From contig CDPCPM010000213.1 of NCBI GenBank assembly GCA_976551045.1, forward strand, positions 4,898,001-4,962,000: a stretch of 64,000 bases of DNA. Reading direction: 5' to 3'. Below are positions 30,277 to 56,228 of the stretch, one piece after another. The position numbers were made by a program, and so were the translations under genes. Below the pieces are notes generated by a model. That model was not told the DNA's origin. It made no database searches and worked only from the letters and a program-made list of their open reading frames with translations. Numbering within the stretch: the first letter of the stretch is position 1; the number at the start of each line of letters is the position of its first letter. The stretch is from Glaucostegus cemiculus (taxonomy: Eukaryota).

Positions 30277-32088
30277 GTATGTTTGCTCCTTTCAGTGATA
30301 TTTACATTCATAGGAATTAGATTGTCTTTAACCTTTACAGATGAAGAGCTGGTTTGCATATAAAATCACACTTGGCACTTGATGAATTTTATCGAGATGG
30401 TTCAGAAATCTGTACAATACTTTGGTATGGTCTTGCATTGCACTTAGCCTGGAGATGATAAGAAAAGGTTTTGTTTCAACAACTGTATTATGATGTTAGA
30501 GTTTTGGATTTGTGGACATTGTCAGCGCTGATTTAAGGAGTTGAGCATTTTCAGACTGAATGATATACTTAAGATGCAACAAATACATTTCCATTTTGAA
30601 CAACTACATACTTCTGTCCCAGCATTATTGCCAGAATCTGCAAGTACAATGCAAATTATTCCAATTTATTAATTAATATATTGTGCCAAACACTTATTTA
30701 TTTCCAATGTATTTATTGGAAGCCTGACTTCACTAGTTATGTGTCCTCAATAAGAAAGTAGTTTGAAATGGATTAGAAATTCACTTGTAAAGCTCCTGTT
30801 TTTTTCATACCCAGCCCAGACTGGTCTTCAGAGCTGAGTTAGCAACAGCCATAGTTTCCTTGGCAGCTGTCAAAAAATGCACCATGATAGTGGCCATAAT
30901 ATTTGTGTTGATGGAGCTGCCTCTTTGGATGGTCTTCATAGGCTACACAATTTCTTGATGCAAGTTCAAGGTGGACTCCTCCATGCTTTGTGACATTGTG
31001 TGCTAGCTTACTGGCAGACTGCCCAGGGCACCAGGTATATGCTCACCAGCCTGTTTCATCAGGCTGAGTCATGAAGGCTATGTCTCATCCACCAACCATT
31101 GAGAGGTATGGCAGGGAATTTTGGTCTTAGGGCAGACACCTATCAGCTTCTACACAGACCTAGTGATTAACTGTGTGAAGAGGCCACGTACTTCTCATAT
31201 ATTTTGTGTAACGTAGAAGGCCATTCAGCCCATGAAGTCTATGCCAGTTCTCAGAGCATTCTTATCAATCCCATTCCCCATTTATTTTCCTGTCATCTAA
31301 TCTCTCACATTACCCATCAACTTCCAATTTTCCCACTACCCACTACACTAGAGGCAATTTACAGCAGCCCACTAGCTCTCCTAACCTTCCCAGCCTAACC
31401 TCCAAAGCATGTGCAGTGTAGCATCTGAAGATGACTGAATCTTCATGAAGACTAACCACCTCTTCCACTTCCGGGAGTCAAGTGTCCATTTTCATTTTCA
31501 ACACGTGAAGTGAAAGAGAGGTACGAGTTTCAGTGTTTCGATGCGAAGGGAGAACAGAGAGTAATGCAGATGATGAAAGTGACAGCTCAAGAGAGTGTTA
31601 GATTATTTGTCCTGGCTGATGCACTACAGCCAGTCAACCCATCAGCTCTACAGGTAAAATGGGAGTCAAAACATTCACAGGGAGATGTAAGGGTCACTTA
31701 CTATCACTCTTTAAGGAGGATTCTGCTACACTTGCTCTTTTTCCATTATCCTGTAGTTTATTTTCTGCTTAAAGATATACCCCATTCTCCTTTAAAGATT
31801 AAATCTGTATCTGGAGTCTTAATTAAATCTTTAACCAACCAGACTTTCAAGCAGAATCTCACAAATTCAACCACTCTTTGCACAAAAAAGTTTTTTTTTT
31901 CTTGCCACTTCTGTTTTTATTGCCAAACCCCTTAAATCTGTGATTGAATAAGTGATAGAGTTCTGAGTACATTTAGTTTATTTTAACTCTATTGTGTGTG
32001 AAGGCAACTATCTGGATGATTCACCGTACATTGCAGTGCTTCTGATTAAATGGTTTTTTTTCCAAACTGTATTTGTGTCTCTGTGCAG

Positions 32089-32318
32089 CTTCATTCAACA
32101 GAACAGGAGAAAATGCGTTGGCGAATGGAAAAAGTCCAGCTTGAGCAAAGTGTTGAGGAAAACAAAGAGCGGATGGAGAAGCTGGAGAGTTACTGGATGG
32201 AAGCCCAAACTCTTTGTCAGGCAGTGGATGAGCATCTGAAAGAGACACAGGCTCAGTACCAGGCCTTGGAGAGGAAGTACAGCAAAGCAAAACGCTTGAT
32301 TAAGGAATACCAACAGAA
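32089..32318 (+). CDS. PPP1R9B: PPP1R9B coding exon (coiled coil)
   Basis: Bounded by ctgtgcag| and |gtaaga. 230 nt, ends in phase 2, encoding [76 protein letters not shown](K). Confidence 0.97.
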
Positions 32319-33189
32319 GTAAGAAATACCCTCTGCAGTATCGGGGGAGATTTTCAACTTCATCCCCTGGGTGGTGATGTGCTGGAGTGGATCACTTCCC
32401 TTTGTAATATAGGCTCTGTTTTCATTCTGATAAATGGACTGATCATCAGGTGGGTTCATTATCAGGCAGGTGAGCTGCTCCAGCAAGTTATTGCCCAGAT
32501 GCTGAAGACAAAATTCTAACCTCTTAGTTCTCCACAGTAAGCATCATATGTAGCGAGCACTGGAGTTATCAAAAGGGTAAAATTTCTTTGTGCCAGTGGA
32601 ATTGACCTGAATGCAAAATTTAAAGAGCTCAATAATAAGTTGACTTTGCAAGTTTTCGAGCCATTTCAATATAAATAGGTTTCCCTTGAGAAAGAAATGT
32701 TAAAATATATTAAGCACATTTTCAGGAAATCACGGTTTTGTTCTGTGTGGTTTCTACAAGAGCATAAATTTTGTAATAATTGCTACAAAGAAGATCTATT
32801 GTGAACCAATTTGCAAGAGTCTGGAGCAGCTTCACAACCACACAATTATGTATCTCAAATCTACAAAAGTTGGCTAATTCTCCTGTGAATAATAGTTATT
32901 AGTTTGATGGAAGTGAAGTGCATAAAGGTCAGTGTTATGTTCATTACTTTGAACAGCTCTGGTGAAACAATCACTTCCAGGAGCAGTCATAGGTTTATAC
33001 AGTTAAGCAACAGCTACAACCTGTGGCACAATGAACTAGTTTATAAAGCTGAATAACCAGTCTAAATCAAGTCATGTGTGTGGGTGTAATTATTATTCTC
33101 TCATGCACAGGGAATGGCAGCTCCATGACTGAAAAGAATTGTTAATGCCCAATATGTGAATAGAATAATTTAAGTAGAATAATTTTGTA

Positions 33190-42693: not shown

Positions 42694-42747
42694 GTAACAG
42701 AACTGGAGACAAGTTTAGAGTCACTGAAGAATTCCAATGCAATTTAG
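42694..42747 (+). CDS. PPP1R9B: PPP1R9B terminal coding exon with stop codon
   Basis: gttcttcatgcag| then VTELETSLESLKNSNAI-TAG, matching spinophilin C-terminus ISELEGNLQTLRNSNST* in length and sequence. A stop here with no SAM domain distinguishes PPP1R9B from PPP1R9A. Confidence 0.88.
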   Translation, partial: VTELETSLESLKNSNAI

Positions 42748-43960: not shown

Positions 43961-46900
43961 AGCAGAGAATATATTTAAGAATGAGATTTACCTCACTCTA
44001 CCCTTTTATCATCACAGGTTTATGCCCAAGAGTAAACTAGTTCTTCAGTTTGCCTGTTATTTCAAATGAAGTTGAGGTATCGCGACGACCTAGATATAAA
44101 CTTGACTCATATCATAAGGGAGAGCAATGCTTCTCCCTTTAGACACCGTAGTAACACTCAGGTTGTGAAAGACTTCACCCTTCTTTTTCCCCACTTCTTA
44201 GCATTGCCATGGAGAACAAAGGGGACACATTATAATGAATCTAACACTGGAGTATGTTTGACAAGGTGTAGGGGTGCTCACTGACGTTTGAATAGGGGGA
44301 TGTGCCATTTACACAGCTGCTTTTCCAATCTGTAATGTAGGCAGATGGGGACCATTCCACCCATTACCTGACAACGTTCCACTCAATCCCAGGACCATTG
44401 CGGTACTGGAACTTTAGCTTGTTTAGTCCACAACTCCACAGGATGTAGACTTAGTTGACATTGAGGCACTATCAACAAGCTGGTGGTCCATTGCCCAGAA
44501 ACACAATGCATAGTAGGGTTCCATATTAATAAGTATTCTAATTCTGTTGAAGGGCTACAACAAATGCTCAGCAATTTATCTTCCATGCATTGCATTAAAC
44601 TGTTATTTTAGTAGCACAAAGTATCATCACCATAAACACCATAAGGAAGTAGCATGTGGTATCAATAAATTGTTTTAGAGGGCCACCAAATGATTAATAA
44701 ATGAGGTAACATCTAAACTAAAGCATTTGCTACAGTGAAGAACTTGTTTCAATCACTTAAGTAGAAGAGTTAGTATCTCACCAGATGACCATTCAGGTAA
44801 CATTAAAGCTGTGTGGGCTGCAATTCCAGCAGAGTTATTCGTCAGTGGGCTTCACTAGTTGAGGCTTGCAGCCCTTAGCCATTCAATGCACCCTGATCCA
44901 GTGGCTTACAGAAAAACCCCTGGGATGTCTGCACACTTCACACAGGGTTTCCGAAATATCCAAATTAGGTACCATCTTATTTGAAGTGAATGCTGAAGAG
45001 AATCCATCTTTTTGTTGTTTTCTTCCAGCTGGTTATCCAGTTGTGTGTCACCTAACCCCACTGCCTGATGGCTCAGACCTACTCTGTGCCCCCAGCCACG
45101 ATACACCCACTGTCCCTATAACAAAATGGTCTTTGCCACACAGCCTGTAACTGGCTGCTGGTGCCCTGAATTTCAGTGTTGCCGGTCCCAGCAAGTTAGG
45201 TAAACACCTAACTTAATCCAACAAGGCCAGCTCAGTGGGTTCAGAAACTTGTTCCCATAGATCCCACAAGACCAACTGAAATGTTTGGTTGGTAAGGCAA
45301 GCATTAACTCTGGCAACAGGGTGCTGGACAAGTCATTGAAAACCCACTGTCAAGTGACATCTCATTTGTTCCACTGAGTAACTGAGTTTTCCTGGTGACT
45401 AGCTGAACCACAGCAGGAACCACATTGCTGTCTATTAATAATCCCCAGAAAAGCCAGCAACATGAGTTCTACCATAATCTGCTCAGTCTTCTGGATAAAG
45501 AAGGCAGACTGCCTGTGGGCAACAGGACAGGAGGGATGAGGATAATACGTTTCCCTTGAAATTCATCCCTGACTGGTGCTATATGTTGCAGTACATTGGA
45601 CTTTGCCTCTGAAATTCATTACATTGGCATCAACTCAACAGAACTGAATTTCCAAGGCAAGATGCAATGCACTGTCACGATCAAATGGTGCATTTAACAG
45701 GACCAAACAGGTAAGAATTTCTAGGTTCTCTTTAAAAAAACAAAATATATTAAAAGCTGCTACTTACAAAATGTGATTATTTTTCCATCTGTGGTATTTT
45801 GGAAGGGACTGTAGTGGACATTGTACTGACACACTACCCCTTCAACTCAGGAACTTGGTTTTGGAATCTTGCCTAGTCTGACGAAATGAAAATCTCCTTC
45901 CTTGCCTCCATGTGTCTGAAGGGAAATGACTTTTAGCCTTCTGAGTCCACTTCACAAGAAGCAAGAACCAACAAGAGTAATTATCATTAAATTAGAAATC
46001 ACAGTGTGAGGATAATCATGGAGGGGAGGGAAGGAAGGGTAGAACTTGGTGTAGGGTTACACATCAATGCAGTAAGGATATAGAGGAAGCATCTTGTTCA
46101 TCTCCTATGAATATTTAGTATTAATTTACCTTGCAAATGCTAGAAAAATTCCACATCCCTCACACTGACATCCCTCACTTTGATTAGCATAAAAATGGCT
46201 ATTATCCTTCCTGGATATTATAATGAACATTGGCAGACAAATGATTGCGTTGAAGCAGCAGGTTACACATCAAACGCAAATCTTGCTTTGACCTGCCAGT
46301 TACTCCTTTAGTTGTGGGGAAAGGTAGAAAACACTGAGCCATATTGGATTTTTGATAAATACTTTTATCATTGCAGATTGTTACAGTTTAGAGGTTTCAG
46401 TAGCCAACTGGTTTGCATAAGCCTTGTGCCCACTGTTTGAGATTGTATTGCAATTGGTTAATTTCACTTGTGTATGTGTGATAATTGTATTTGGTGAAAT
46501 GTATACAACTTCAGAAAAAGTTAACTTGTTTCTTTTATGGGTTTCAACCATGTTAGCTGAATGTTGATTAAATTTCCTGTTATAAGGTAAAATCTAGCTT
46601 ATATCAAGTTATTAATCTTCTGATACTTTTTAATTTGATTAAACTTGTCCAATAGATTCTTAAGTAGTGTAGTGAGGATCTTTTGAAGTATTTGACAGGA
46701 CCTAATGAATTTATAATGTCTGTAGCATGTTTTGCTAGTATTGGGTAGGCTTCTTATTGCTATTCCCCTCTGTGTTTAAATTAAATTATCCCTCAGAACC
46801 TACTTTATTTTGAATGTATATTGAGCATTTCCTCAACCATTATATCATATCTTTTAATGAGGTGTAGCATGAATTCATACAAAGCAGAATAAAATGGACA

Positions 46901-47289
46901 ATACCACTTTAATTTTAGGATGTTCCCTTTTAAGTTTATGTACAATGTTTGTCCTTATTTAGGTTCCTTTATTTTTCAGAAGTGACATACTATCGCTATC
47001 TGTAATGTCATTATACTAATGACAAGATCTGGATTTGGAAATTATTTTTGCATTAAAGTCATTACAGCAAATCCCTGCACAATACCAGTGAGCTCATGGG
47101 GCAGCACTGATTCATGCTGTGCTCTTGTAAGCAAAGGAGAATAGAGATCATCTCATTCTGCCTTATTCTGTTGCCCTTCTTCAGGTTTCTGCTGTATAGC
47201 TGCAGAAGTGTAGGCCAACAGGTACATCGCCTGCTCATCCTGCCGTCAGCAAAGGTCGTGTGTTGAGCTGAGCAGGAAGCCACATAGAA

Positions 47290-47520
47290 ACACTTATTTG
47301 ATAATGACCAGATAATCTGTTTTTGTGATGACAATTAAGAGACAAATGTTGCACAGGCTACCAGGATAACTCCCTTTCCCTTTCTCAGAACGGTGCAGAG
47401 ATTCTTTTACACATACCCAAGAAAGCAGATAGGGCCTCAATTAATACTCAATTAATGACCAAAACCTGCTGGCATCTCAAGTAATACAGCATTCCCTCAG
47501 TACTGCATTATAATCTAGTG
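47290..47520 (-). mobile_element. DeuSINE-like (SacSINE1/AmnSINE1-type) fragment
   Basis: cagataatctgttttt...ccaggataactccct...cagcattccctcagtactgca resembles the reverse Deu-domain as I recall it. Confidence 0.6.
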
Positions 47521-47809
47521 ACTTATTAAGGTCAAAGAGCTTTACTTCGCACTCGTCAAGCAAATCTACTACCCAAAATGATGTTAAGCAACACAGGTTG
47601 GAAAAACATCAGGATTCATTGCTGGTCTGGGAGGAGTTAACCATTCTTAGCCAATATTGGAATAGATAGACTATGACTGACCTGTGTTCTTGTAGGTTAG
47701 TGCTTGCTGCTAGTGAAGATGATTTTCTCTTGACATGCATTAACTTCATAAGACTAATGTGAGAACTTCAGACAAAATTTGCACGAGGAAGACTTACTTT
47801 CATGGTCTC

Positions 47810-48155
47810 GAGAAACAAAGCGCTTCACAGCCAATGAGGCATCTTTGAAATATGGTCATTGTTGTAAAACGGGAAACACTGTAGCCAATGTGTGCACAGC
47901 AAGATCCCAGAAACACCAGTATAATAATAATCAGATAATCTGTTTTTCGTGATAATGATTAAGAGATAAATGTTGTGCAGATTACCAGGATAACTCCCTT
48001 CCTCTTCCTCAAAATAGTGCCAAAGACTCTTTTTCACTCATCTCCAAGAGAGGAGATGGAGGATCAGTCAACTCCTCATTCAAAAGAAAGCACCTCCATT
48101 GTCCCATGTTGGCATCTCAAATACTTCATCACTCTTTCAGTACTGCACTGGAACC
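47810..48155 (-). mobile_element. DeuSINE-like SINE
   Basis: gcgcttcacagccaatga...tgtgcacagcaagatccca...aactcccttcctcttcctcaaaatagtgcca...cagtactgcactgg. Confidence 0.7.
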
Positions 48156-48575
48156 CAGTGGCTCATTTACAATAAGTAAAATGGTTTACTTGTCCAGTGG
48201 ACCCAGCTTGAAATAATCTGCCATTGTATTGTCAGCCCACTTGGTGTCATTGGTGCTCACTGTTTGAAGAAGACTGCAAATTTATTATTTATTAAAGAGC
48301 TCATGATTTCATTATAAATGATGGCCTAAGGAAGACTCCTCCCGCCCCCCCCCCCCCCATGTACTTATAATATTAACACACAGAGAAATAAAATGGAGTT
48401 GTCCTACTAATCACTATGCAGCGACACTTGATGGAGCATGTATCAGTGAAGGCCTGTTCTCCCCCTATACAAACACCCACTGATCAATGCTCATTGTTTT
48501 GGCTAACACAAAATAGCCATCTTATCTAGAAGCCGAGGGGCAGTTCAGAACCTTGGGAATGTAAGTTTAAAAAAT

Positions 48576-48810
48576 TTGCAGATGTGGGAAGTCTGAAATA
48601 AAAACAGAACATGCTGGAAACACACAGCAGGCCCAGCATCTGTGGTAAGGGAAATAGAATTAATGTTTCAGGTTGAAGATCCTTCATCAGATCTGGGAAA
48701 GAGGGAGAAAAACAAGTTTGTAAATTGTTTTGTTTTCCAGATCTGATGAAGGATCTTCAACCTGAAAGGTGAACGTTTCTCTTTGCAGAGATGCAGCCTG
48801 ACCTGCCAAC
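48576..48810. mobile_element. Palindromic Penelope-derived element with two opposed hammerhead cores
   Basis: Perfect 31-bp inverted repeat (48666-48696 and 48737-48767) containing CTGATGA-agg-atcttcaa-cct-GAAA. Confidence 0.8.
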
Positions 48811-48958
48811 AGAACATACACTGGGTGCAGCTCAGCAACTTCGGGAAAAGAGGAAGCAAAATGGCGGGTGGTGTCTTGGGGGGGAGGTTGTGGGTAAAAG
48901 CAACAAATAATAAATACAGAGCCGTGTTGTTCTGTCCCAGTCAGTTCAAATCCTGATG

Positions 48959-49185
48959 GAGACACTGTTGACTGCAGATGCTGGAACCTGGAGCAACACA
49001 CAAAGGTACTGGAGGAACTCAGCAGGTCAGGCAGCATCTATGGAGGGAAATGGACAGTTGACGTTTTGGGTCGAGACCCTTTATCTGGACTGGAGTTGCA
49101 TTGTTCCTTTTCACCCAAAATGTTGACTGTCCATTTCCCTCCACCAATGTTGCCCGACCTGCAGAGTTCCTCCAGCTTATCATTT
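48959..49185. mobile_element. Palindromic Penelope-derived element
   Basis: Left arm ctggaggaactcagcaggtcaggcagcatctatggagggaaatggacagttgacgttttggg; right arm cccaaaatgttgactgtccatttccctccacc...gagttcctccag. Confidence 0.8.
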
Positions 49186-49229
49186 GTTGATCTGAAAAAA
49201 GTACATTCAGTTCCTGTCTTTCATGCTTC

Positions 49230-49525
49230 CAGCACAGTGGTGCATCTAGTGGACATGCTGCCGCAACCTTGGCCTCTCGTCTTTGAACCTGTCCTCTGGT
49301 GCTGTCTGTGTGTAGTTTGCATGTTTTCCCTGTGACCAAATGTGTTACCTCCAAGTGCTCCAGTTTCCCTTCACGTCCCTGAGATGTGCAGATTAGTTAG
49401 TTAATTTGTCACTGTAAAATTGTCCCTAGTGGTGGGATTTGGGGTGAGTTGATAAGAATGCGGGGATGATAAAAAGTGTAAAATGGGCGTGGTTAGTGGG
49501 CTTTGCAGTGTGACTCTATATGACT
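49230..49525 (+). mobile_element. V-SINE/HE1-like SINE
   Basis: agcacagtggtgcatctagt head; tgctgtctgtgtgtagtttgcatgttttccctgtgacc V-domain. Confidence 0.7.
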
Positions 49526-51395
49526 ATTTCTCTGGACAGTTAGAGGGAGCTATTTATCCTTGGTCACTGACTAGGAAACACTTGAAGAATATTGGCATGA
49601 TTTGTATTCACTTCTGGGCATTTCAGTGGAACCAAAGTAGAGGTGAGTACAACCTATAACCAGTATTCTGTCAGACGTTCACCAAAACAAATTGCAGCCC
49701 CTGTAATCCAGTAAAGATTTTGAGTCCTGTTTCATGCAGCAGTATTGCATAATGCCAGGAAGGTCTGTAAATGTACGTGGTGACTACATTTTTCTACTGT
49801 AATCTGAACCTAATTTGCTATAACAGTGTAAGCATATTATAGAGGCAGCAGTTTGGATATTTCAAAAATTGGAAATCAGGCTTCTGGGTGGGGTTAATGT
49901 GATCAGAGATTTTGCAGTATTTATTTACCGATCTCATGCTACAATTTTAAGACTAAACTAGAGGCTTAAGCCAGAAATATTGTGTCATAAATGATTTTTA
50001 TATCAACTTGTAACAGTATAAACTTGAACTGATTGTGATGATCAGTTGTTTTGAGGAGCAAAGTGCTGCAAAAGATGAGCAATTGACTGGTAGAAATTCC
50101 ATAATGACTTTTCAGGCAATTCTGGCAACTGGCAGACACCAAGTTGCTTAATTATTTGGCAAAATAATTGATGAAATTCTGGAATTCTAGGAAGCACCAC
50201 CCTGTAAATATGCGTGTTAATGATGAATTGCATTGTAGCAAGCTAGAATTTTTATTTAACTAGTGTGGTCAGTAAGCGAGCCATTCTATGCTCAAGGCAC
50301 TGTAGGACTTTACTGCTTTATTGAGCCAATATTAGCCAATATTAAGTTTTGTATTATTTTTAATCTTGTGATATTCCTAATTGATAATTTTATGGTGCTG
50401 AGCAAATATAGCTATTGATCAATTGCTGTGTGTTTTTAATAGATTCTAACATTATAACACCACCTGTTATTATTGCTGCTGTACAGGACAGTAAAGTTAA
50501 AAGTGTGGACATGCATGACATTCATTTTTATGTCTGATTGTTCATAAATAGTTGGAGTTCAAACTTGATTAACATCTGTATTAATCTAAAGTTTATATGC
50601 CACCATTTTCATTAATCGACAGACGTTTCAGCACTTACAACCAGATGTTAACATTATGATGTCAAGTCCTTGTGAACATTATTAAAATGGGAATTGAATG
50701 ATTTAAGTCAGGGGGATCATAGTTAGATTACTTGTAAATATGAAAGACTGCAGCAAATTCCTCACTTCAAATTTGGCCCTAACTATACTGGACAACTATA
50801 TACCAACTATATGGACAAATTATAGCAAAAAGAAATGGCATCCTGTTGGGTTTAGGTGTGGACTTGATCGAATGATTGAAGTACATTATTTTGATGATGT
50901 AGGGAATCACACCAGACCCACAATATGTTCTAAGATCAGAAGTTATGTTCTGTTGCACCCCTTCCCTTCATATAAACCAGCACTTCCCCAGCAGACACTC
51001 ACTAGTTTAGTTGTATGTTTACATGTTTCACATTTGTAATCTCTAAAATATATTGTTCTGAAATTTTAATCCTTCCTGGTCTCTTACAGGACTTAATCCT
51101 ATAAAATTTTCATTACTATTTATTTTTACAAATCCCAACATGAAGCCAGTAGAACTTTTATATAAACTGCCCAACAGAAACCCATGGTGATTAAAATAAA
51201 ACATACATCAATGTTGAAGAGCTGCATAAGTGAAACATGGTGCTGAAAAGCTTCAGTACTGTGTACTTTAACATTTAAGTGGATTATTGAGAAGAGGAGG
51301 CCCGTATCTCAAAATGTTTGCATGCACTTGGATCACATATGTCTCAGAGTTGCTTGGTAACAGCAGTAGTCAAATGGATTTTTTATTCTAACCTC

Positions 51396-51413
51396 TGCCA
51401 CCAGAGGGAGTAG
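51396..51413 (+). promoter_or_regulatory. CTCF-like motif
   Basis: tgCCACCAGAGGGAGta; motif match only. Confidence 0.4.
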
Positions 51414-53093
51414 TTACTCAATGCAGAAGATGACCACATTGCCTGATTAATGTTCAGTCAACAACTTCCAACAGTGTTCAGGAGTGCAGTGACTCCCAGT
51501 CTTGTTGAATGAAAGCTCCACTCTTCAGTATTCATTCCCTCCCATAACTGGCTGATGATGTCACTACCCATTCCTTATAAGGATTTGGGGTGTACCAGAG
51601 ATTCCTGGGGAATGCTAATGGCTTTATGGCTGGCAACTTTTTATTTTGTTATTTTTATTTTACTTTTACTATTTTTGTGAACATTCTAGCTAAATTGCCT
51701 CAGTGTTGTTCATGGACCCCTTGTAACCTTTGGAGCCTCTTGATGGGGGGATCGTGCACCCAGGTTGGGAACCACTGATGTAGAGAACTTCACCATGTGA
51801 CATGGAGCACTTTCCCAGCTTGGACAACCTACATTATTTGGAGCCATTAACTTTGCCATCAGTTCATCTCTCTTAAATGAATCTGCAATTTTATGCCTAT
51901 GTTCCTAACAAAGAGACAGTCAAAAGATCTTCCAAGTAAATTCTCCCAATGTTAGTTTGACTTTAGGGCAGTTTCAATCTGTGCCTCTCTGTTCCAGTGG
52001 CCTGGTATTCTGTGAAGAAGTGCTTTGCCTACCTTGTCTTTGCCATCTAATGGCTTGTAGGCTGATATAATTTACCCTCTCAGTCACTTTCTTTCCAGAG
52101 TAAAAAGCTCCAATTTCTGTGGAGTATCGTTACAGCTCAATCATATAGCACGGAACCATCATCCAAGTCAGCATTGACCATCAACACCAAGGTACACTCA
52201 GCCTTTAGGGATCCTATTTTTTATTTAGTGTTTTGACACAGTGGAGTTAGGTATTGGGTTCTTCCTTACTTTGTGCATTTTTCTTGTATCTTAGTGAATG
52301 AACACAATATTCAAGGTCTGTCCACAGAATTTAACATGACATCCTCTCACTTATATCCAGCATCTTGATTTAAGATTCTGTTCATTTTGTTTATCAATTA
52401 GTAAACACTGAATCCAGTATCACCCCAAATCAATTTCCATTCACCTTTATCTATTTCTATTGTCCAGCTACATTTTTCTTTCCAGAGTTAACAAATGTCA
52501 GTTGCTGTTGATTTGTCTATTTGCATGTTTTATCTTGAGGTTCTTACTGCTTCCTCCACCTCACACGCTGAGCCTGCCATCTCGTTCAGTACGAGCTGGA
52601 CTATGTTCCTAAATGCTAGTCTACCACAAGAGAAGTGCTGGGAGACCCAGACACTGCTTCTGGAACATACCCGCTGCCTCATCTTGACACTACTCCCCCA
52701 ACAAGCCCCCATTACTTGCTGCCTTTCCTTCAGGTATTGCTTTATCTATATCTAAATTTCACTTAGAAATTTTGCTGTCTCCCAATTTCAGCAAGCCTTT
52801 TCTAAGGAAGATTATCAAAATCTGTTTAGAAGAATTTGTTTGATGTTATCCACTTTGGATTTCTCTTCTGAAAATTGACCAAAATGTCTCCTTCCTGGAA
52901 CCATCACTCTGCAATAGGTTACTCTTGATTGATGATTAAATATTTTACCAGATATTAATGGGTCTGTGGTTGCCTGTCCTTGAATGGGATGATTGCATTA
53001 GCTTGCCTCCCATCCAGTGGGGCATACTTTTGTTTGTGATGATCACAGAGATCATACCCTGACTCTACTCCCTTGCATAGATAGTGTTAATAT

Positions 53094-53255
53094 ATCAGAA
53101 TCAGTTATTATTGTCACAACCATATACATACATAGTATGCATAGGAGCAAGATACCGTCCTCCTCAGGTGCTCGTCCCATAAAATAACATAACAACCAAC
53201 AGAGACACACATACACACTTGACAGAATAAACATTACAAAACATTAGATATTAAA
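53094..53255 (-). mobile_element. Retroposon 3' tail fragment
   Basis: Minus strand ends gtgacaataataactgattctgat, a short-repeat tail typical of non-LTR element 3' ends. Confidence 0.45.
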
Positions 53256-56228
53256 AGCTATGGAAGTTAAAATTAAATTAGTATGCAGATTAAATTAAAA
53301 ATGGCCAGTAAATAAATAAATAGTTATTAAAGTGAACGGGCTGGTGTCGGGCATTTAAAGTGCAAAAGACCACAGGAACATTAAAATTATTGTGTAAGAA
53401 GGAAAAAAAATCTGTTACATCTGCAGCCATCCTGGTAGTCTCATGATACCACATGGAAAGAATTATTGATAAATCACAGTAATAAATCTTTTTATCATTT
53501 AGTCTACAACAGACAAGACAGGAGGCATAAATTATTCCACTAATGGAAGGCTTCGCAAACCATTGTTCAAAAATCATTTGTTCTTTCAAAGAATGCTGTA
53601 CATGTTCCATGTCTCAAATTATGCTCTGTCCCAAAATATCTTAACAAATCGGCTTCCCAATTCCCAATGGAGTTCATTTCATTGAATTCCCGCTTATTCA
53701 CAAAAATGGCATGAATTTCTTTCTAGTAATGCTGTACGTGCTGTTGTGGTCTTGTTAAGAAGTTATTCATTGACTGGATTGATTTATTCTGCATTGTTTT
53801 TCAATTTCACTCTTCATGTGAAATCTTTTCCTTCACTATCCGCTTGAAATGCAGTGCTTGAAGGATTCTATGTTCTGTAGCAGTAAACATTGCCAATTAT
53901 TTTTGCTCTCTGATCATCCCTTTGATCTTGTTCTTACATTTACTGTAATATTCCATTGATCCTTTCACTCTAGAGATGACCATATATATTCAGTATAACA
54001 CTTTTGATTGTCTTATGGGTGAACTTGACATTGTGTTTTCTGAAGCTTGGAGAATTTTCAGTAGGGTTTAAAACATAAATCATTCAATGCATTCCCGGGC
54101 ATTTATTCCCCATTTTGCCCGTGTGGAAAGTGAATTTCTTTGTTTGACCAAGACCTTGTCCTTTTCAAGTCAAATAACCTGAGACTGAGATCTGTGTACT
54201 TCAGCCAAGATTATCTGTGAATAGTTTAAATAAGATTGTACATTATAAATTGCATAAAAACATTCATAGTGACATTGTCATTTCCTGTAAATACAGACAG
54301 TGAAGGTATTGTGCTTCTTTGCAACTGTTTCTGTTAGCAATGTGCTCTGAATTTCTACCTATTGATCCAAGCAGTGTATTGTTTGTTTCAGTGAAATGGT
54401 AGAGTAATTCATATACACAATCGTAGGCCATGGTTGTATTATCTTCATATGGATGCACGTGTTAAACACTCTAATCATGCTGAATGGCTGAAGTGGACTT
54501 TATCTTAGAATGGAATTTTCACTAATTCAGGGGAGTGAGATACTGCACATAAGCAGCACTCCAAGATCTTCACAAGGCAGTGACCATTTGCTCAAATCAA
54601 ACCAATAAATTATGACCATGGCAAATAAAGAGAAACAGTTTGTCACTTTTCATTAATTATTAAGAATTTAGGTTTTGAAGTGATTTTTTAAATTTCCTTA
54701 TCACTCATGTTACTTTTGCAAAATTCATGAACCTTTATTAATTCCTACAATAATTTTGCTTCCTTGATGGAATTTACAGTCATTTACTATTAAATAATGT
54801 GATCAATAATTAGAACTTCCTTTAAACAAAGCTTTCTTTATATTTCTCTACAATTATTCACATACTGCCCAGCCAAGTGAAAAGGTTGTCTTTGGAATGC
54901 ATTTTATATTGCCCCTTTTACAAGAAAATTACTTTAGAAATCCCTCCAGATCCAGGGATCTGGCACTACAACAGAAGGGTTCGCTTGACCATGGATACAA
55001 CTTGGCAGGAGGACATCAGGTTGCCAAATATATAAAACTAAGCCTCTGTTCTGGATAGAATTTTGAAAAGAATCCAAACTATGTACATCAGCTATAGGAG
55101 ATCAAGGCACATCAACATAAATGGGCATACGAGCATTGAAGTCCTCGGACAGTTCTCTCAGCTGGTAGGGGGAAATAAAATAATTACAAAGCAATTTAGT
55201 TTAAGCAACTATTAGTTTAGGCTCACCAAGCCACATTTTAATTAACAAACTGTTTCCATGCTAAAAGTGTGAAAGAAGGTGTTACCTGCATTGCTGAAGT
55301 GATTGACAGTCTTCCACTCCCGAGGTTTTCTTTAAATGTTTTGAAAGAAGTAACTGACTTGTCCAGGTGTTACCAGGTGTAGGGAGATGTGCAAGAACAG
55401 GCCATTCGGGAGCCCCACCATAATCATTAATTATGTTAAGGACACACATATATGTATATTTATGTGTAATATGTTTAATGTTTACATTCAAAAATGGTCA
55501 GATCTATATTCCTGTCCCTGACCAGTTTCATGATCATTGAATTTTTTTTGCAAGGCTTTCACTTGTTGGCCACTTAGCTGACTGCTCAGATATCCTCTTC
55601 ATACTTGCCTACTAAGTTTATAAAAAATCAATAAGAAATGCAGTGCTTGGGTATGATCACAGTATAGGAGATTATTTTAAATACCTGCAATCAAAATTAC
55701 TACCTTCCAAGCTCTGACCTTTGAGATCTCTGAGAGCATTTATAATTCAGTATATTTGAATTGATTATCAATAAAGATGTGTATTTCCAGAGCTGATTGT
55801 GGTTAATCATCAAAAATCTACAATAAGAGAACCTGAATTGTTTATATAGTATAAACTGTATTACTAGTAGTGTCCATGTATGCACGGAGAATGGTAGTCC
55901 TTAATTAGTCAGCCTGCCATTTGATATATTCCTTATTTCATGAGTGAGTGATGAAATGTGACCTCCTTTGCTTTACTGGAAGCAAAATTATCAAAAGTCA
56001 ATGGTTATTTAAAAAAAAATCACCTCCACAACATTGAATGCTAGAATTCATTAATCCACTTCAAACTTACCTTTAAAGACATTATGAGATGACTTTGGAC
56101 TCAGCAGCAAAATAGCAAAATAACCCTACAAGCCATGGTGGAATGGCCTATACTATAGGTTTGTCTGCAAACTATACTAACTTGCAATTTAGCAAATCAC
56201 AACTTGCAGCTGGCCTGCAATTTTATTT

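Follow-up and report, generated by a model that had tools for sequence, protein, structure and literature searches.

Insertions of endonuclease-positive (EN+) Penelope-like elements (PLEs) display a characteristic layout, in which an inverted, 5'-truncated copy of the pseudo-LTR (pLTR) lies at the 5' end of the unit and a tail of 30-40 bp is found on one of its ends (described in parts of PMC8557442 and PMC3846280). The head-to-head junctions of such units have been interpreted as a result of self-priming (a section of PMC3846280), and the tail corresponds to two RT start sites (a section of PMC11167929).

The minimal type I hammerhead, whose structure is given in PMC4209133, is the ribozyme motif closest to the one considered here. 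According to excerpts of that paper intact minimal hammerheads showed no cleavage as monomers, and in the accessible text of PMC11167929 such intact motifs needed the PLE protein for cleavage. Dual motifs on opposite strands, 100-700 bp apart, are reported from Schistosoma in portions of the 2014 minimal-hammerhead paper. Besides, polymerase template switching has been found to homogenise the arms of short inverted repeats (excerpts of PMC8604942).

In the following we describe a palindromic locus at 48568-48806 of a window of 64,000 nucleotides, by which we mean the whole stretch of DNA that was analysed. A sequence-only reading had presented it as a fold-back derivative of a Penelope-like element with a hammerhead core on each strand. 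A literature search combining Penelope and hammerhead with inverted or palindromic returned only unrelated papers.

Results

Geometry of the inverted repeat

The perfect inverted repeat proposed earlier is exact: 48666-48696 is the reverse complement of 48737-48767 at 31/31 nt, and the match can be extended to 35 nt with one mismatch. Both arms contain the CTGATGA and GAAA boxes, and the letters that follow the boxes, GAAAGGTG on the plus strand and GAAACATT on the minus strand, were found as given for the cleavage flanks. The outer parts of the arms have indeed diverged: over 78 aligned positions, arm-to-arm identity is 0.87 in the inner half versus 0.67 in the outer one. The 40-nt centre is only partly complementary, with about 7 nt missing from the right arm. 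Within the 2.85-Gb genome the exact 31-mer occurs twice, namely as the two arms of this locus, while matches with one mismatch lie at 8 further places, each of them single. The letters common to both arms that break the hammerhead structure are located at 48741 (stem I), 48753 and 48759 (stem II), with mirror positions at 48692, 48680 and 48674. The left arm was assigned to subfamily 1, the oldest of four subfamilies.

Table 1. Parts of the palindromic locus and its neighbour, in window coordinates.
Feature	Position	Strand	Remarks
Left arm, almost certainly the 3' pseudo-LTR end of a Penelope-like element, long form with tail	48568..48716	-	profile match 48710-48568, positions 9-154 of 165; aligns to right arm from 48715
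Tail of ~35 nt, left arm only; approximate boundaries	48568..48600	-	bimodal arm ends and long/short pairs in the sample
Minus-strand hammerhead, stem III and cleavage site	48662..48665	-	15.2-16.2 is C-A (CpG decay), H17 is U
Perfect 31-bp arm, left copy	48666..48696	-	boxes and stem II of minus-strand hammerhead; CTGATGA from 48690
40-nt centre	48697..48736	none	two 5'-truncated arm starts head to head
Right arm, almost certainly the same pseudo-LTR end, without tail	48725..48806	+	profile match; recognisable to profile position 95 only
Perfect 31-bp arm, right copy	48737..48767	+	boxes 48743-48749 and 48764-48767
Plus-strand hammerhead, stem III and cleavage site	48768..48771	+	15.2-16.2 is G-G, position 17 is G, against the NUH rule
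Second, independent head-to-head pair of the same superfamily	48968..49212	none	160 bp away

The neighbouring pair at 48968-49212 belongs to another subfamily; its arms are 73% alike with a longest run of 18, and identity is 0.83 in the inner versus 0.62 in the outer half. A third decayed arm or micro-inversion considered at 48807-48880 was rejected, as this segment has no profile match and its alignment score was equalled in 67 of 500 shuffles. Upstream, the window also contains a repeat of ~250 nt in two diverged direct copies (47286-47527 and 47909-48167; 75-82% alike, spacing ~624-640 nt).

Penelope origin of the arms

A DNA search of the genome gave 3,650 first-look candidates. In two loci of the element's own subfamily (L017 and L029) a decayed GIY-YIG C-terminus lies ~300 nt upstream of the arm, and the endonuclease C-terminal motif, which in these four loci we take to be such from its familiar appearance, was also seen in L011 and L028. 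The corresponding C-terminal peptide yielded 34,082 first-look candidates in the genome, and a hammerhead-bearing end stood behind it in 19 of 20 fetched loci, the remaining locus (L051) breaking off. One further locus, L072, possesses an open frame of 476 aa whose nearest Atlas clusters comprise RVT_1, HTH_animal and GIY-YIG (score 0.95). A Pfam scan of this frame was weak, with RVT_1 only (E = 0.018), and a comparison with solved structures (PDB) gave 0 matches. One arm lies behind the frame, and direct as well as inverted arm copies lie upstream of it; L072:1621-5759 constitutes a near-complete PLE copy in textbook layout. L072 belongs to a younger sister subfamily, and among the loci examined no intact ORF of the element's own, oldest subfamily was seen.

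Because the arms trail the endonuclease C-terminus, and because of the arrangement of frame and arms in L072, we assign them to a PLE. To judge from these sequences, they are almost certainly the 3' pseudo-LTR ends of an old endonuclease-positive element (RT + GIY-YIG), and the Penelope origin claimed before is thus well supported. The look of the endonuclease end suggests a Poseidon-type element, which is presumably the appropriate label; a literature search on Poseidon in sharks and rays found nothing. The Penelope/Poseidon clade is told apart by its RT phylogeny and by the absence of the Zn-finger linker of Neptune and Nematis.

Head-to-head pairs across the genome

To place the locus in its family we sampled 1.73 Mb, namely 173 segments of 10 kb each that were taken at round coordinates; four of them flank the window. 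This sample contained 371 arms. Neighbours within 50 bp of each other were arranged tail-out in 51 cases, in tandem in 5 and tail-in in 1. A profile search of the 64-kb window itself revealed 20 arms, including 6 tail-out pairs, and extrapolation from the first 1.33 Mb of the sample leads to genome totals of ~84,000 pairs and ~600,000 arms. The ends of the arms are bimodal, at profile positions ~120-125 and 155-160, i.e. in two classes ~35 nt apart, and 43 of the 51 sampled pairs combine a long with a short arm. Both arms belong to the same subfamily in 46 of 56 pairs, against 35% expected; similarly, shared departures amount to 4.3% within pairs versus 2.9% across pairs (p = 1.8e-4).

Truncation points vary from pair to pair, ranging over profile positions 4-108 among those listed, and five other inverted pairs of the same subfamily were encountered among 29 fetched loci (L002, L004, L005, L006/7 and L022). 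Since junctions and truncation points differ between pairs, each pair was likely made at insertion, and there is no fixed fold-back family. Such a fold-back or MITE-like family would be expected to comprise numerous copies that all share a single junction and whose terminal repeats are equal; here truncation is variable and the 31-mer is twinned at this locus only. No target-site duplication, a feature that PLEs may or may not show, was detected at 48568-48806, the flanks sharing only two 6-nt chance matches. The element is almost certainly a head-to-head pair of truncated PLE 3' ends, which likely arose in one insertion event. This layout is already published for PLEs, and the element is ordinary in this respect; together with the variable junctions, this speaks against the distinct non-autonomous fold-back derivative that had been envisaged.

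Hammerhead motifs

The consensus sequences of the four subfamilies, from which the arms diverge by 10-20%, adopt the minimal type I fold, with both boxes, one unpaired base, a stem II of 5 bp and a stem I of 3-5 bp, and carry a CG palindrome plus U/C at the cleavage site. In the subfamily 4 consensus the first box ends in C where A is otherwise conserved (core position 9; e.g. L113:7740-7873 and L173:5812-5940). In the register common to all four subfamilies the 5-bp stem II follows one unpaired A. The stem II of 3 bp proposed originally results from a shifted register. In the present copy two of the five stem II pairs are broken, both arms showing A-C at II.3 and C-A at II.5, besides A-A at I.2.

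Covariation and structure were counted on the 73 gap-free arms out of 299. The first pair of stem I covaries (U-A in 25 arms, C-G in 22), a result matched by 1 of 2000 shuffles of these 73 arms and representing one event between subfamilies; the other 10 stem pairs do not covary above shuffles. The covariation looked for across genomic copies is accordingly present in one stem I pair and lacking in the remaining ten. The stem III pair is C-A in 26, T-G in 19 and C-G in 12 of the 73 arms, i.e. plain CpG decay, and H17 is U or C in 71. Conservation is 0.84 at core positions versus 0.81 at tail positions. Both boxes are intact on both arms of the element, a state found in only 10/73 other arms. 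A strict minimal-hammerhead test was passed by 2 of 159 arms, neither of which belongs to the element; the two are located at L144:4575-4710 and L152:9201-9325.

The identification as a minimal type I hammerhead is therefore upheld at the level of the family, by the consensus folds and the stem I covariation. For this copy the suspicion of inactivity is borne out: stems I, II and III are broken and the plus arm fails the NUH rule, so that both hammerheads appear, from their letters, very unlikely to be active. An Rfam scan of 44000-54000, a check suggested beforehand, contained no hammerhead among its 14 matches up to E = 10; these were sub-threshold hairpin (miRNA-type) matches and other weak ones only. 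The miRNA-family matches were dismissed as generic hairpin matches below the gathering scores.

Nor does one transcript contain two cores, as had been supposed, since any transcript holds one core plus its complement. The related idea that the core is sequestered by pairing agrees with the fold predicted for read-through RNA (48660-48775), in which the core lies in a long hairpin with a stem of ~35 bp and -65.6 kcal/mol.

The run of 31 identical bases

The one oddity of the element is that its arms agree in 31 successive bases. With an overall identity of 77% between the two, a run of this length has p = 0.00044 (200,000 within-pair permutations), the most extreme value among 57 pairs compared (6 of 63 pairs, with <24 shared columns, were left out). 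A run of 33 was seen in one further pair, which is young (arms 97% alike). Inside the 31 nt there are 5 shared departures from the subfamily consensus and 0 private ones (4 shared over the whole pair with the larger sample), whereas outside 12 are private and 0 shared (Fisher p 1.6e-4, or 0.011 counting only 2). Shared departures inside and private ones outside are, at the level of the alignment, the pattern that a copying tract would leave. The shared letters break stems I and II, and the A at 48741/48692, although rare in the family (5/120 arms), is found on both arms.

A general homogenisation of inner over outer arm parts could be ruled out by comparison with first 44, then 56 other pairs: no inner excess was seen (inner 0.67 versus outer 0.72), and only 2 of the 56 have p < 0.01. 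Homogenisation thus is not a trait of the family, as might have been assumed. A near-identical 31-mer matches 91 places in the genome with no more than one mismatch, and the present locus is the one place where two such matches form a twin pair. A variant present in 25 exact copies is only 2 letters away from the arms, and another, present in 6, only 1 letter, so most of the shared departures may stem from the source copy. With such an origin, the inner arms would have departed from the source less than expected under neutral decay, and chance or selection would fit this equally.

Related species and genomic context

Contigs of organism A (runs X1 and X2, from two studies) and organism C (X11) cover 48675/48678/48683-48766; their orthology rests on the unique centre and flanks, and each covers only part of the locus. 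In these centre contigs 1 other letter and 1 gap were counted in 83-91 nt, while contigs that run into the single-copy flank differ at 11/157, 16/208 and 19/222 positions. With 27 differences in ~350 in the flank of organism A, the Fisher test of centre versus flank gives p 0.025 (unchanged when the arms are counted once), and p 0.019 for organism C; since the runs were chosen for shared 31-mers and most differences are common to A and C, the two values amount to hardly more than a single comparison, and the flank stretch 48890-48960 is equally unchanged. In run X8 no orthologous record appeared among the pieces listed. The relatives carry nearly the same centre at a flank divergence of ~8%, so the arms were identical already before the split and the event is not recent, contrary to the earlier suggestion. 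Copying does not explain why the 40-nt centre has changed so little in these relatives.

Differences from the two other species cluster to the right of the hairpin, at 48767-48889 (~16-19 in 123 nt, inferred from piece totals), and then stop: the 71 nt of 48890-48960 are without a difference, the preceding 80 nt differing at 9-12 places. This stretch includes an AATAAA at 48909, followed by GT-rich sequence, a possible distal poly(A) site.

The gene upstream is neurabin-2 (PPP1R9B-like), with six exons at 11974-42744 on the plus strand of the window and three more upstream in L054 and L055. The exon at 32086-32319 encodes 62 residues that are 100% identical to neurabin-2 of four batoids, which makes a ray the probable host. 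The last coding exon ends at 42744 (+), and the hairpin is thus situated ~5.9 kb downstream of the stop on the same strand.

Discussion

We read the locus as a head-to-head stub of a PLE with broken and likely inactive hammerheads, whose arms were made identical by arm-to-arm copying long after insertion; the probability of this reading as a whole is, in our estimate, about 0.58. The literature and the statistics of the pairs suggest that an autonomous copy supplied the RT/GIY-YIG protein, that reverse transcription was confined to the final 100-150 nt of the element, and that a second copy in inverted orientation was left at the 5' junction, one of the arms having the tail. The stub would then have taken part in the decay of its family, which is seen directly as ~20% divergence from the consensus and includes the stem III CpG. 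Subsequently the inner arms could have become identical through conversion, or through an intrastrand switch of template, that spanned the 40-nt centre. This would have preceded the separation from the relatives, which are now ~8% diverged, and may have happened more than once. Read-through RNA is predicted to meet the antisense arm first, so that the core would be folded into the ~35-bp stem and no hammerhead would form. The conversion or template switch invoked at the outset is thus retained as the likeliest cause, on account of the permutation value and the pattern of shared departures; the arm identity most likely derives, as far as the letters tell, from an old copying event.

The same stub could also have identical arms by chance, the letters of the source RNA having been inherited and 62 sites having remained without mutation. 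Among ~84,000 extrapolated pairs ~37 would be expected at p = 4.4e-4; the source lineage may have carried most of the shared letters, other pairs show no general homogenisation, and a run of 31 occurred in 9 of 1,183 cross-locus arm comparisons at 75-80% identity. On the other hand, for 62 sites to escape any private change has a probability of only 4e-5 to 1.5e-3 (for 15-10% decay), the pair is the extreme of those compared, and the rare A at 48741/48692 sits on both arms; we therefore consider chance unlikely, albeit an explanation that deserves weight. Slightly more doubtful is a co-option, in which selection would have kept the ~35-bp stem as an RNA hairpin, either as a double-stranded element in an extended neurabin-2 3' UTR or as a small-RNA precursor. 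The centre is better kept than its flanks (p about 0.02), the predicted stem is stable at the energy given above, and the hairpin is downstream of the neurabin-2 stop, on that gene's strand, with the AATAAA of the unchanged 71-nt stretch 140 nt further on. Yet the contigs were picked for shared 31-mers, A and C largely share their differences, and one flank stretch is as unchanged as the hairpin centre. Seven other AATAAA lie between the neurabin-2 stop and the one at 48909, and the Rfam miRNA matches are far below gathering (51.7 versus 90 bits). At ~30 nt the loop region is rather large for a pre-miRNA, and inspection by eye revealed no CNNC motif. A literature search on chondrichthyan Penelope microRNAs found nothing. 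The fuller scenario, in which a dead Penelope stub acquired its perfect 31-35-bp stem by copying and rays then kept it near the distal end of the neurabin-2 transcript as an exapted hairpin, derived from two opposed hammerhead cores and serving as a double-stranded 3' UTR element or small-RNA precursor, seems slightly less probable again. Should the hairpin be under selection, it would exemplify how the end of a transposon can be recruited as an RNA structure in the neighbourhood of a gene for a synaptic scaffold.

That the locus is a separate fold-back element, non-autonomous and with functional hammerheads that silence each other, is highly improbable. Intact boxes on both arms and the five other same-subfamily pairs among the fetched loci would suit it, but every pair seen has its own centre and its own truncation points, all three stems are broken and a single transcript has one core only; moreover, even intact minimal hammerheads failed as monomers (excerpts of PMC4209133) or needed PLE protein (accessible text of PMC11167929). 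The variable junctions by themselves have already largely refuted it. The lowest probability of all we give to an artefact of assembly or polishing, or to a MITE of a DNA transposon. Polishing is able to homogenise perfect inverted repeats, and the outline, being palindromic, is like that of a MITE; against an artefact, the centre and the arm letters recur in independent contigs of two other species with no more than 1 difference, and a MITE was rejected because the arms are joined to the endonuclease end of a PLE and are unequal, and because most copies of the family stand alone (51 pairs among 371 arms).

The head-to-head stub with later copying, as we prefer to see it, combines a known PLE insertion layout with a known ribozyme motif in decayed form, and as found is ordinary. 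The sample shows that inverted arms which are short and old have usually escaped homogenisation. The ~84,000 extrapolated stubs make this genome a large natural sample for the mechanism of PLE inversion and tail formation.

Comparison with known systems

The locus resembles EN+ PLE insertion units (Fig. 2 legend of PMC8557442; parts of PMC3846280) in its head-to-head pseudo-LTRs, the tail of 30-40 nt on one arm, the strong 5' truncation and the link to RT plus GIY-YIG at the C-terminus. Compared with the units described there, it has no ORF between the arms, no target-site duplication was found, the right arm ends early, and the inner 31 nt are identical despite the age of the pair.

At the family level, the motifs are like the minimal type I hammerheads of PLEs in the published excerpts, with both boxes, an unpaired base before stem II, a short stem I and a palindromic 15.2-16.2 without loop III. 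They differ from these in that the element's own subfamily closes stem II with G-U instead of G-C, and that this copy has broken stems and no NUH triplet on the plus arm.

With regard to the homogenisation of arms by template switching (sections of PMC8604942), the locus shares short, non-identical inverted arms, a short spacer and a tract made identical; that work showed the process in yeast with a phylogeny, whereas here it is deduced from one locus without an ancestral state. Finally, animal (non-LTR) retrozymes, in the parts of bioRxiv 10.64898/2026.07.22.740005 at hand, are likewise non-coding and PLE-derived, carry a type I hammerhead and are also reported from a chondrichthyan. Unlike the present element, those retrozymes form tandem arrays, whereas a single inverted pair makes a tandem dimer impossible.
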